The notes under the pieces: model-generated | What the model saw: the letters and a program-made list of their open reading frames with translations, nothing else | Told to the model about the DNA's origin: nothing | The model's database searches: none | Part shown: positions 16,961-52,917 of the stretch, piece after piece | Position numbering within the stretch: the stretch's first letter is position 1 | Layout of the letters: every line of letters begins with the position of its first letter | Made by a program: the position numbers and the translations under genes | Assembly: GCA_050575255.1 (NCBI GenBank) | Contig: JBNZDD010013640.1 | Location: forward strand, 2,282,834 to 2,346,833 | DNA from: Harriotta raleighana | Lineage: Eukaryota | Direction of reading: 5' to 3' | Length of the DNA: 64,000 nt

Positions 16961-17625
16961 AATTTGAGTGAAGCTTGTAATCGTGAAAAATGTTGGCAAT
17001 GTCATCAGTTGATAAGTAAAGACACTGGTCCATGGGTTTATCCCCTACCTCCCACCTCCACTCTTTCAGTATGATTGAATCTGACACCATTCCACAATAG
17101 ATTGTGAATCTTCCTTCATAACAAGGGAAAGCACTTCTTATGAAGCAGTGTAAAGCCACATTCCTTGCTGGGCAACAATCTTGGCTGCAGTAAAATTGTT
17201 GGAAACTATGCGACCAAACACTGTGTCAAAGTCAAGTGGTGTGCTGAGTGCTATACCTGTAACAATCTTATTAATTGGAAAAAAAAGTAAGAGATTCAAG
17301 GCTCCAAATGCACCTCGTCTTATTTTTTTAAACTATTTCTTTTTTAGAATTAAAAATTGTGTGTNTGGTGTGCTGAGTGCTATACCTGTAACAATCTTAT
17401 TAATTGGAAAAAAAAATGTAAGAGATTCAAGGCTCCAAATGCACCTCGTCTTATTCTTTTAAACTATTTCTTTTTTAGAATTTAACATTGTGTGAAACTT
17501 TGGAAATTATTATTCAGCCATAGTTTGGAAGCTGCTTTGTCACAATTATTGAAGGCAACCGGTCTCTAAATCACGACCAAATTTACGAATTTCCATAGTA
17601 ATACTTGCCCTTCACAGATTAGACA

Positions 17626-17940
17626 GTGGAGTCCTGTAGCTCAGTGGTTAGAGCACTCGCCTTACAAGCCTGAGACCTGGATTCGATTCCAGGCAGGTTA
17701 GGATGAAATCTTGGACAAGTTTCCTTACTCCACATACCTGATAATAATCCCTCAAAAAAACAATAATAAATTGGTCATTTCAATCCACGACTGTTTGTGG
17801 GACACTTCTGCACAAAATTGGCTGCCGGGTTTTGTCCACGTTTATACAGTCAATTCACTTTACAGTAAATTCTGCGGAGCACTTTGAGACGTCTAGAAGA
17901 CATGAGAAGCTCTATATCAAATGCAAGGATTATTATTATT
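17626..17940 (+). mobile_element. Young tRNA-headed SINE, full length
   Basis: gtggagtcctgtagctcagtggttagagcac...ggattcgattcc...atcaaatgcaaggattattattatt. Confidence 0.92.
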
Positions 17941-25667: not shown

Positions 25668-26000
25668 TGAGACGTCTCAAACTGCTTCACAGAATATACT
25701 GGAAAATGAATTAAGTGTATATTTTTGTGGGTGAAACACGTCTTCCAATTCGCATAGCAGTGTCCCACAAACAGTCATGGATTGAGTGACGCAATTAGTT
25801 TTCTTTTTAATGTGAATTTATTTTTGAAGCGATTATTCCCTCCGGAAAAACAATCTGGAAATTGACTAACAATCTGACTTCTATTTACAGCTAGGTGAAC
25901 AGAGGTGTGTGGATTAAAGAAACTTGCCTAAGGTTTCGCCCTTCTCAGAAATCAAACCCAGATCCTCTCGCTTGTGAGACAAGTGCTCCAACTAATACAG
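25668..26000 (-). mobile_element. tRNA-headed SINE, diverged, intermediate-length form
   Basis: Tail-proximal tgagacgtctcaaactgcttcacagaatatact, Deu-like body, then aaacttgcctaaggtttcgccc and a degenerate head. Confidence 0.75.
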
Positions 26001-26022
26001 AACGTCACTTCTGTGGAGGTAC

Positions 26023-26260
26023 TTTTAGGTAAATGGCCTAAGGCGCCAGACTCAAGNTGTGAGACAAGTGCTCCAACTAATACAGAACGTCACTTCTGTG
26101 GAGGTACAAGTGGGAAAACTTCCACCTGAACACACAGATGATACGTCGGTATAATGACTCATCCGAAAGGGAAGGGAACATGCAAAACACCCCCAGCAAT
26201 TCACTGGAGTATCAGNCTAATAAGGAATACAAATGTCTTAAAACTCATTTTTCCCTAACA
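26023..26260. mobile_element. Ends of a polymorphic LTR-like insertion (5' end 26023-26056, 3' end 26217-26260), with the empty allele assembled between them
   Basis: GTAC is duplicated at 26019-26022 and 26261-26264 but single at 26104-26107 in the empty copy. Termini are ttttagg... and ...ccctaaca. The 5' end matches tRNA-Leu(CAA) at 22/23 nt. Confidence 0.6.
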
Positions 26261-27499
26261 GTACAAGTGGGAAAACATCCACCTGAACACACAGATGATA
26301 CGTCGGTATAATGACTCATTCGAAAGGGAAGGGAACATGCAAAACACCCCCAGCAATTCACTGGAGTATCATCTTACACTATATGATTCCATGTCCCGAC
26401 ATGGGGCCTTGATCCCACAACTGCTAGCCAGCCTGACACACAATCGCAGATGCAACTACAATGCCAGAGACGGAAGGAACATTCCTCATATGTAATTCAT
26501 GGGTGAGGGGTTTAGTCACTGAATCTGAAATTGTAGAATATTTCAAGTTTGTATGAAGACTGTAGAATACACAACGTTAAGCTGTAGAATGTTATAAATG
26601 GGTTTGATTGAGACCATGCTTTGTGATTTCTTTGCTAAGAAACAAAGCATGTCACGATGATTTATTATTTGAGCAAACCTACACTGTGCATATGCTCTGC
26701 ACTTGTAATCTTATGTTGATTCGTTGATTTGCTTCATCTTTCAAGAAAGCTGTTCCCTCTTGATTTTGCCCTGAGTATTTCAAGTAGATGAGCTTCATTG
26801 ATTTCCCTGACTTTGACAGCTTTAATCCAAAAGCTACATGTCTGATGTGAAGATCAAGAAGGCCAATCAAAGAGAATGAACTGCAGAACCCAGTCGGGAA
26901 ATTAATGGCAACTTAATCAACGCAAAGGTATTTGTGGAGATGCTCGAGTAGATCAATGAGGGCTTGGGCTTGGTTATTTATGCCCTCCTTCTGATGGGGG
27001 AGGCCAAGTTTGCCATCCAGTCACCCGAAATGTTGCCTCGTTCATCAGGATGGGACAGTAGCTTTGCATCATCTGTCAAGCAGACCAATCGGGTATTGAG
27101 ATAAACCAGATTTGATCCACTTTATACTCTTTGAACACCAGGGGGTTGCTCCTCCCTTTCACTCCTTATCTAATTAAACTTAAAAAGAAAATTAATCTAA
27201 GGCAACAGTGTGGCTGACATTTCCCTGAATAGTTGATGATCCAGTCTGACAACAAACATTCTTATCTAGTATTGTGTGATTATTTTAGTGTATCCACAAA
27301 CACAGATTCAGATTTGACCTTTCCCTCATCCTTTTCTTCCCTTCCCTCTAGTCTAAAAAATGCAGTGAGATCAATGTGTACTAAAAGTAATTACAGTGAC
27401 ATGCACAAAATAGGCGAAATATAAAACGTACTCCAGTTACCACCCTTAGTAATGTCAGCCTTTGGAAGCTATTCAATTTGTCTTCAGATCCCGGGGAAT

Positions 27500-35984: not shown

Positions 35985-36353
35985 CATACAAAGTCAATTC
36001 ACTTTACAGTATATTTTCTAAAGTGCTTTGAGACATCCAGAAGACGTGAAAAGCGCTTTATCAAATGCAAGTATTATTATTATTTATTATTAATAATCAT
36101 TGCATCTAATATACTGCCGTGTCTTATTGCGTCTTTGAGATGTTTCAAAGTGCTTCACAGAATATATTGTCAAATGAAAAGTTGTCGATTGAAGTGACTA
36201 ATTGATTATCATTAGCGCTGGGTTCCTACTTCCAGCTCAGTAAACAGGTGGATGGAGTAAGGAAACTTGCCGAATGTTTCGCCCTGCCAGAAATCGAACC
36301 CAGGTCTCTTGCTTTCGAAGGCGAGTGCTCTAACCACTGAGCTACAGCACTCC
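35985..36353. mobile_element. Tail-to-tail SINE fragments: + 3' tail (approx. 35985-36090) and internally deleted - copy with head (approx. 36091-36353)
   Basis: agtcaattcactttacagtat...aaatgcaagtattattatt, then the reverse tail and gcgagtgctctaaccactgagctacagcactcc (reverse head). Confidence 0.8.
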
Positions 36354-52612: not shown

Positions 52613-52917
52613 TAATAATAATAAATAATCCTTGCATTTAATGTAGTGTTGATGAGTATTCTCATTGTCTCAAAGTGCTTCACAGAATATACTGTAAAGT
52701 GAATTGACTGTGTATTTGTGGGCGAAACGGGACAGCCAATTCTGCATAGCAGTGTCCAACAAACAGTTGTGGATTAAAATGATAAAAATTTATTTTGAGG
52801 GATTATTATCAGGCGTTTGGAGTAAGGAAATTTGCCCGAAGTTTAGTCCTACCTGCAATTGAACCCTGTTCTCTCACTTGTAAGGCGAGTGCTCTAACCA
52901 CTGAGCTACAGGACTCC
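52613..52917 (-). mobile_element. Young tRNA-headed SINE, full length
   Basis: Reverse head gcgagtgctctaaccactgagctacaggactcc; tail aataatccttgcattt. Confidence 0.9.

Follow-up and report, generated by a model that had tools for sequence, protein, structure and literature searches.

A candidate reverse-transcribed piece of tRNA-Leu(CAA) at the end of a probably heterozygous LTR insertion in Harriotta raleighana

A 64,000-nucleotide stretch of the Harriotta raleighana assembly (here called the window) holds, close to position 26,000, a GTAC-flanked insertion whose left end passes from LTR sequence into part of a tRNA-Leu(CAA), which raises the question of how a fragment of a host tRNA came to lie within the terminus of a mobile element. 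The fragment could belong to a new family of elements that carry a tRNA promoter in their LTRs, as an initial annotation of this DNA had it, or it could stem from a single copying accident, and the latter is the likely answer. The account that we favor, at a probability of about 0.65, is that a retroviral reverse transcriptase (RT) copied a tRNA that was not its primer and jumped back to the tip of U5, and that the product was then integrated.

Two single-N joins, at 26057 and 26216, split the locus into three pieces, in which GTAC is present three times (26019, 26104, and 26261). The left piece begins with the upstream flank of a filled allele (25973 to 26018) and a first copy of the GTAC target-site duplication (26019 to 26022), and these 50 bases (25973 to 26022) are identical to 26058 to 26107 (50/50) in the middle piece, an empty allele (26058 to 26215) with a single GTAC at 26104 to 26107. 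In the right piece, the second copy of the duplication (26261 to 26264) leads into the downstream flank (26265 to 26371), with 2 differences in 111 bases (109/111) between 26261 to 26371 and 26104 to 26214 of the empty allele. What is visible of the inserted sequence amounts to 34 bp (26023 to 26056) and 44 bp (26217 to 26260), and the interior is missing at the N at 26057. The empty site is single copy at high identity: the best three of nine assembly matches are the locus itself, and the remaining six, at 73 to 86% identity, do not span GTAC.

Sequence is repeated on both sides of 10 of the 11 single-N joins in the window, so the tandem layout of two alleles is a habit of this assembly and a heterozygous insertion is the natural reading, one that is based on the assembly rather than on sequencing reads. 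These features agree with the original proposal of a GTAC-flanked insertion beside its own empty site, with both haplotypes present side by side. The insertion is real, likely heterozygous, and of a young ERV-type family. Further joins with both alleles in tandem lie at 17365, 28080, 30608, 55723, 56384, 56628, 61991, and 62178, and they inflate the apparent local duplications in the window. No host gene context was assigned to the insertion, since 19 of the 22 window open reading frames of at least 110 amino acids have no Pfam family. Three tRNA calls elsewhere in the window (17630 to 17701, 36279 to 36351, and 52844 to 52915) fall within copies of a common repeat of ~330 bp and are probably SINE heads.

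The right-hand 44 bases (26217 to 26260) identify the element, which lies on the minus strand: they are the first 44 bases of the U3 of an LTR family (the element's 5' end, starting TG), identical at 44/44 positions to copy L041 (an example of the LTR is at L041:8827-9529), and they have 93 matches in the genome at up to 2 mismatches, compared with 0 for the control. Whole copies of this LTR measure 454 to 708 bp, i.e., the LTR is ~700 bp long. In all 32 distinct records that contain both ends (the window included), the termini are TG...AA and not the TG...CA of endogenous retroviruses. Because the U5 of the family always ends in AA, the plus-strand TT at 26023, which the initial annotation had entered as an anomalous 5' end in place of TG, is normal for a minus-strand element and marks no defect. 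Duplications of 4 bp flank 22 of 24 other solo-like copies, and duplications of 5 bp flank none, which conforms both to the fixed length expected of an endogenous retrovirus and to the LTR-element insertion with a 4-bp duplication suggested at the outset. A literature search for TG...AA ends with exact 4-bp duplications found nothing. The duplicated target bases are biased, with T at position 2 in 17/23 and G at position 1 in 13/23.

Adjacent to the LTRs, the family has the further landmarks of an endogenous retrovirus. A tRNA-Pro primer site (PBS), so labeled from its match to tRNA-Pro genes found in the assembly, follows 10 of 13 matches to U5 plus TGG (the remaining 3 run into flank DNA), with one T between the U5 end and the primer site, and a PPT stands ahead of U3 in L041, L046, L048, and L163. 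Domains zf-CCHC, RVP, and rve occur in the family; copy L042 encodes a zinc knuckle, a retroviral protease, and an integrase in one frame, in the order zinc knuckle, protease, RNase H end, and integrase, the RT part being missing from this copy. Among solved structures, the L042 proteins come nearest to foamy-virus integrase and to MLV/XMRV RNase H. No reverse-transcriptase domain was detected in L042 or in 13 further stretches, and no env was recovered from the family, so its class is not set; we regard it as a retroviral-type family, with a Gypsy-type element as the formal alternative. Being primed by tRNA-Pro, it is presumably comparable to the class I-like endogenous retroviruses of vertebrates. 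Vertebrate endogenous retroviruses with a tRNA-Pro site share with it the LTR, the PBS-Pro, the PPT, the 4-bp duplication, and the order of zinc knuckle, protease, RNase H, and integrase, but their LTRs run TG...CA, whereas those of the present family run TG...AA.

Pairwise identity among 21 whole LTRs ranges from 86.6 to 99.1% (median, 94.1%), and the family is young and of retroviral type, in keeping with the recent activity first ascribed to the element. It makes up ~0.6 to 1.3e-4 of the genome. The genome-wide search for other copies that had been suggested recovered paired LTRs, PBS, PPT, and 4-bp duplications and returned neither B boxes nor the expected termini, the ends being TG...AA.

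Several features of the family deserve mention in their own right. L041:8565-9901 together with L042:1-2849 forms a permuted copy within LINE-like sequence, without a duplication; its order is a 3' untranslated piece, PPT, LTR, primer site, gag-protease, partial integrase, and a 22-base U5 tip, with RT absent between gag-protease and the integrase part. At L163:966-4270 (also in L172; L058/L175 is a shortened form), there is a noncoding two-LTR derivative with a broken gag piece, after which it holds an apparent LTR end and primer site of another element, a foreign site that we take to be of the tRNA-Ser type; judging from this derivative, the family looks like one that also takes up foreign sequence. 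The DNA just 3' of 2 of the 13 tRNA-Pro genes (L190 and L191, both tRNA-Pro(TGG) genes with introns) matches the last 12 U5 bases of the family at 11/12, nearly in register with the primer site. The background for such a U5-like trailer is 3 of 1,497 TTTT sites in the window, a chance of roughly 2% for a match noticed post hoc, and the match could hint that the AA end of the LTR derives from a tRNA gene trailer.

The left end of the insertion begins as the family would have it: bases 26023 to 26034 (minus strand) are the last 12 bases of U5, the element's 3' end with its terminal AA, and match the U5 end of L041 at 12/12. After exactly these 12 bases, the family sequence ends, and 26034 to 26056 (plus strand) follow tRNA-Leu(CAA) from position 16 in the D-loop to position 37, the base after the anticodon (26053 to 26055), in standard numbering that we assigned. 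The T at 26034 is common to the U5 tip and the tRNA piece and constitutes a 1-nt microhomology. The 22/23 match to tRNA-Leu(CAA) given in the initial annotation is reproduced with the assembly's own genes (rough chance, 3.5e-8): the stretch has eight assembly matches, of which seven are tRNA-Leu(CAA) genes and one is the window. Neither ARAGORN nor Rfam, run on the window, calls the 23-base piece. It stops at G37, adjoining the N, and G37 is the exon/intron boundary, the tRNA-Leu(CAA) genes having an intron after that base; because this boundary coincides with the N, the splicing state of the piece cannot be seen.

If the tRNA sequence were a promoter, other copies should resemble this one, as in the Helenus TRIMs, whose LTRs keep boxes A and B, measure at most 323 bp, and have been proposed to owe their tRNA sequence to a SINE insertion (PMC10886601). 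The likeness lies in a tRNA sequence within the ends of an LTR element and in a 4-bp duplication, here GTAC, which also occurs in animal Helenus elements (PMC10886601) and is not specific to Helenus. Against a Helenus-like family with a tRNA-derived Pol III promoter in its LTRs, the junction of U5 and tRNA occurs once in 1.1 Gb (at up to 2 mismatches), ARAGORN finds no tRNA gene in the 32 both-end LTR records, a B box is present on none of their 64 strands, and the tRNA-Leu match is confined to the window copy. The piece is, moreover, antisense to the LTR, an orientation wrong for a promoter role, and its A box is cut down to the final three bases. Where Helenus elements are noncoding and of about 1 kb or less, with tRNA boxes as a family trait of short LTRs, the present family has an LTR of ~700 bp and gag, protease, and integrase sequences, the interior of the window copy itself being unseen. 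The tRNA piece is a one-off feature and no family promoter, which removes the Helenus reading (we consider it very improbable) and, with it, the tRNA-promoter-bearing LTR or TRIM of the initial annotation.

Searches of the assembly for related events gave counts at or below those of the controls. The spliced Leu(CAA) junction has one chance match elsewhere (control, 1), the U5 tip followed by a T-loop has two matches (control, 5), and 12-base tips followed by nonfamily bases have 40, the window among them (control, 86), the others not being tRNA-like by eye.

Whether the tRNA sequence was copied from RNA or from DNA turns on the sole mismatch, a C at 26037 where the genes have T20. All 36 Leu-type D-loops of the assembly have T at this position and none has C, and the junction with U5 lies 2 bases beyond position 20. 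As to marks of a mature tRNA, U20 appears as C, G26 and G37 are unchanged, and the positions of the intron junction and of CCA would fall within the missing interior. Ordinary mutations, too, are most often of this T-to-C kind, and one transition is modest evidence of an RNA template. A U-to-C change at position 20 or 20a is the cDNA signature of acp3U (PMC6895100), a zebrafish study that places acp3U20 in Leu-TAG/AAG describes this misreading as well (PMC11417395), and the modification also stalls reverse transcriptases (PMC11770116). Its reported carriers are zebrafish Leu-TAG/AAG and human Cys/Tyr tRNAs (PMC6895100 and PMC11417395), and Leu-CAA is not named in the portions of the acp3U20 literature that were available. 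The absence of errors at G26 and G37, which are usually modified, counts against an RNA template, m2,2G26 in particular being usually fully modified and misread (PMC8062790).

Alternatively, a piece of a tRNA-Leu gene may have been copied as DNA into the end of the element, at integration or during break repair; C20 would then have arisen by ordinary mutation or would come from a gene variant that the assembly lacks. Error-free G26 and G37 suit such a capture, as do a visible piece that ends at G37, where splicing is invisible, and tRNA clusters that are probably underassembled, many of the genes lying on short contigs. We nevertheless think it unlikely, given that C20 is found in 0/36 Leu D-loops and that the altered base is one known to be modified, with a published signature (PMC6895100).

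Reverse transcription of the tRNA, the reading that we prefer, would proceed as follows. During plus-strand synthesis, the element's RT would take a mature tRNA-Leu as template, either a packaged nonprimer tRNA or one onto which it had crossed from the tRNA-Pro primer via the common T-arm; it would misread the modified U20 as C, stall two bases on in the D-loop, and jump via the one shared base to the end of the minus strand. The short U5 end restored in this way would be joined to the target by integrase, with the customary duplication of 4 bp. If the minus strand instead jumped prematurely onto tRNA cDNA, the visible letters would be the same, and we count this variant within the RT route. 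The observed geometry fits: read on the LTR strand, the antisense tRNA runs towards the D-loop and is followed by the extreme 3' end of the element, i.e., by downstream proviral sequence, as expected of a reverse-transcribed tRNA insert. The sequence itself shows the two ends, the family that they belong to, the duplication, the orientation and uniqueness of the tRNA piece, and its mismatch, whereas the RNA template, the strand, the jump, its timing, and the interior of the insertion are inferred.

The switch between tRNAs is the added step. The family is primed by Pro and not by Leu, so the model derived from HIV needs one extra switch; a switch between T-arms would be allowed, since the primer site for Pro is identical to that for Leu in the last 5 bases (10/18 overall). 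Footprints of such events elsewhere in the assembly were not recovered: the three matches to a U5 end with a Leu primer site are all unrelated, and the one match to a Pro primer read-through copy is a tRNA-Pro gene. Leu-primed LTR elements do exist in this genome, several unrelated ones being in L065 to L071 and L076; of six exact matches to the Leu primer site, none resembles the window's LTR or shows read-through.

With 12 bases, the U5 tip at the window is shorter than the ~15 bp of end that HIV integrase complexes are said to need (PMC12657518), and this discrepancy is a point for modification after integration. A normal LTR may have inserted first and then received, 12 bases from its end, a tRNA cDNA that a LINE or a repair polymerase had produced; an exact duplication would be explained without a 12-bp integrase end, and a tRNA-Gly beside an HIV provirus has likewise been proposed to have arrived post-integration (PMC12220202). 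Short U5 tips do recur in the family. A shortened form (L058, also L175) has a 21-nt U5 tip joined at a 3-nt microhomology, with its GCCC duplication intact; L019 (G000:C13627 near 1963863) is a 47-bp copy composed of two LTR tips of 33 and 14 bases, with an exact 4-bp duplication; and L042 has a 22-nt U5 tip and no duplication. They are rare: an 18-base U5 pattern finds 87 ends, 85 normal and 2 short, by a filter that misses some odd ends, which with the 47-bp L019 puts short tips at 2/87 ends plus one copy. A 14-base pattern has 579 matches, and among 60 retrieved from the matches listed, 16 are this LTR, all 16 of normal length, and 44 are other sequence. A common repeat (L081 to L140), LINE-like by eye, shares 14 U5-end bases and is the source of most of the 579 matches.

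The short ends of L058 and L019 may result from deletions in copies that were already integrated, in which case they would side with a later arrival of the tRNA; because short tips could be later deletions, these copies illustrate the architecture and leave its timing unproven. A separate, later insertion still strikes us as improbable. The 1.1 Gb contain no further processed Leu(CAA) copy, a family that occupies so little of the genome would seldom be hit by an unrelated tRNA insertion, and with a share of ~1e-4 and a young copy, the target would have been both small and brief. A 6-bp hairpin (L041:9516-9532) reaches from the U5 end into the first bases of the primer site, and the window copy and L019 both have their junctions within or at its 5' arm; in folding, however, the U5/PBS region does not surpass shuffled sequences (z, 0.11).

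A different concern is that the insertion is real and its tRNA part an artifact of the library or of assembly at a contig end. The tRNA part does sit at a dead end adjoining an N, and only 34 bases of the insert are kept there, compared with mostly 44 to 48 (range, 23 to 119) for the shortest repeat edges beside gaps or contig ends. Reads were mapped from runs X11 to X13 (one sample, raw reads) and from contig set X1, with the reservation that the best public run holds 0.51 of the flank's words and that the source species of the runs may differ from that of the window; runs with a small share of the words carry no weight as evidence. In X11 to X13 and X1, depth on the unique flank is ~0 to 6x, the interval 26006 to 26073, which includes the junction, has depth 0, and the empty site is covered by one read (run X11); no read links both insertion ends or covers the tRNA junction, and at a depth too low to test it, these data speak neither for nor against it. 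A chimera would nevertheless need a rare partner and an error precisely at U20, and the 50-base flank, the duplication, and the 12-base U5 end are all exact, on which grounds we give it little credence.

The closest precedents come from retroviruses in patients and in culture. In defective HIV proviruses, plus-strand synthesis runs 7 to 54 bases through the tRNA primer and then jumps downstream on the minus strand; such tRNA(Lys3) read-through inserts are ascribed to "aberrant" or "delayed" second-strand transfer, and 5 of 44 have a mismatch at modified position 58 (PMC12657518). The window insert shares with them plus-strand antisense tRNA that extends towards the tRNA 5' end, a downstream jump, and the occasional mismatch at a modified base. 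It differs in that the HIV inserts derive from the virus's own primer and lie in somatic DNA, whereas here a Leu tRNA appears in a Pro-primed family, the jump lands 12 bases short of the end of U5, the integration junctions can be seen on both sides, and the copy sits in a genome assembly beside the empty allele.

Nonprimer tRNAs have also been recorded: a tRNA-Asp/Glu in HIV nef (Konstantinova 2006) and a tRNA-Gly between MLV LTRs (Colicelli and Goff 1986), both as described in PMC12220202, and a tRNA-Gly beside an HIV 3' LTR (PMC12220202). As in the window, these are 5'-truncated tRNAs reverse-transcribed into or beside retroviral DNA, but they are cell-culture products and are internal, circular, or outside the LTR, whereas the present piece lies inside the terminus and is followed by the U5 tip and an exact duplication. 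In the light of these precedents, the tRNA piece is most likely a single-copy addition, an RT accident of the kind known from HIV and MLV.

Integration of some of the aberrant HIV products cannot be demonstrated without DNA ends and insertion sites (PMC12657518), and the window locus offers both integration junctions together with the empty allele. Pieces of tRNA in retroviral DNA were already known from HIV patients and from cell culture; the literature searched, with most subscription journals outside its coverage, contained no germline example of such an insert. The weight of the finding is limited in that it concerns a single defective copy that gives no indication of being functional. The fullest version of our reading, to which we give somewhat less than even odds, is that a still-segregating germline provirus records an RT that copied a modified nonprimer host tRNA into its own integrase end, with the misreading of acp3U20 fixed in DNA and a 12-bp AA end integrated precisely. 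If this holds, the tRNA-copying errors of RT would reach the vertebrate germline, a tRNA modification would have left its mark in genomic DNA in the form of a base change, and a very short, non-CA end could integrate precisely; there would then be a heritable, LINE-independent way, other than SINE insertion, for tRNA sequence to enter LTRs.
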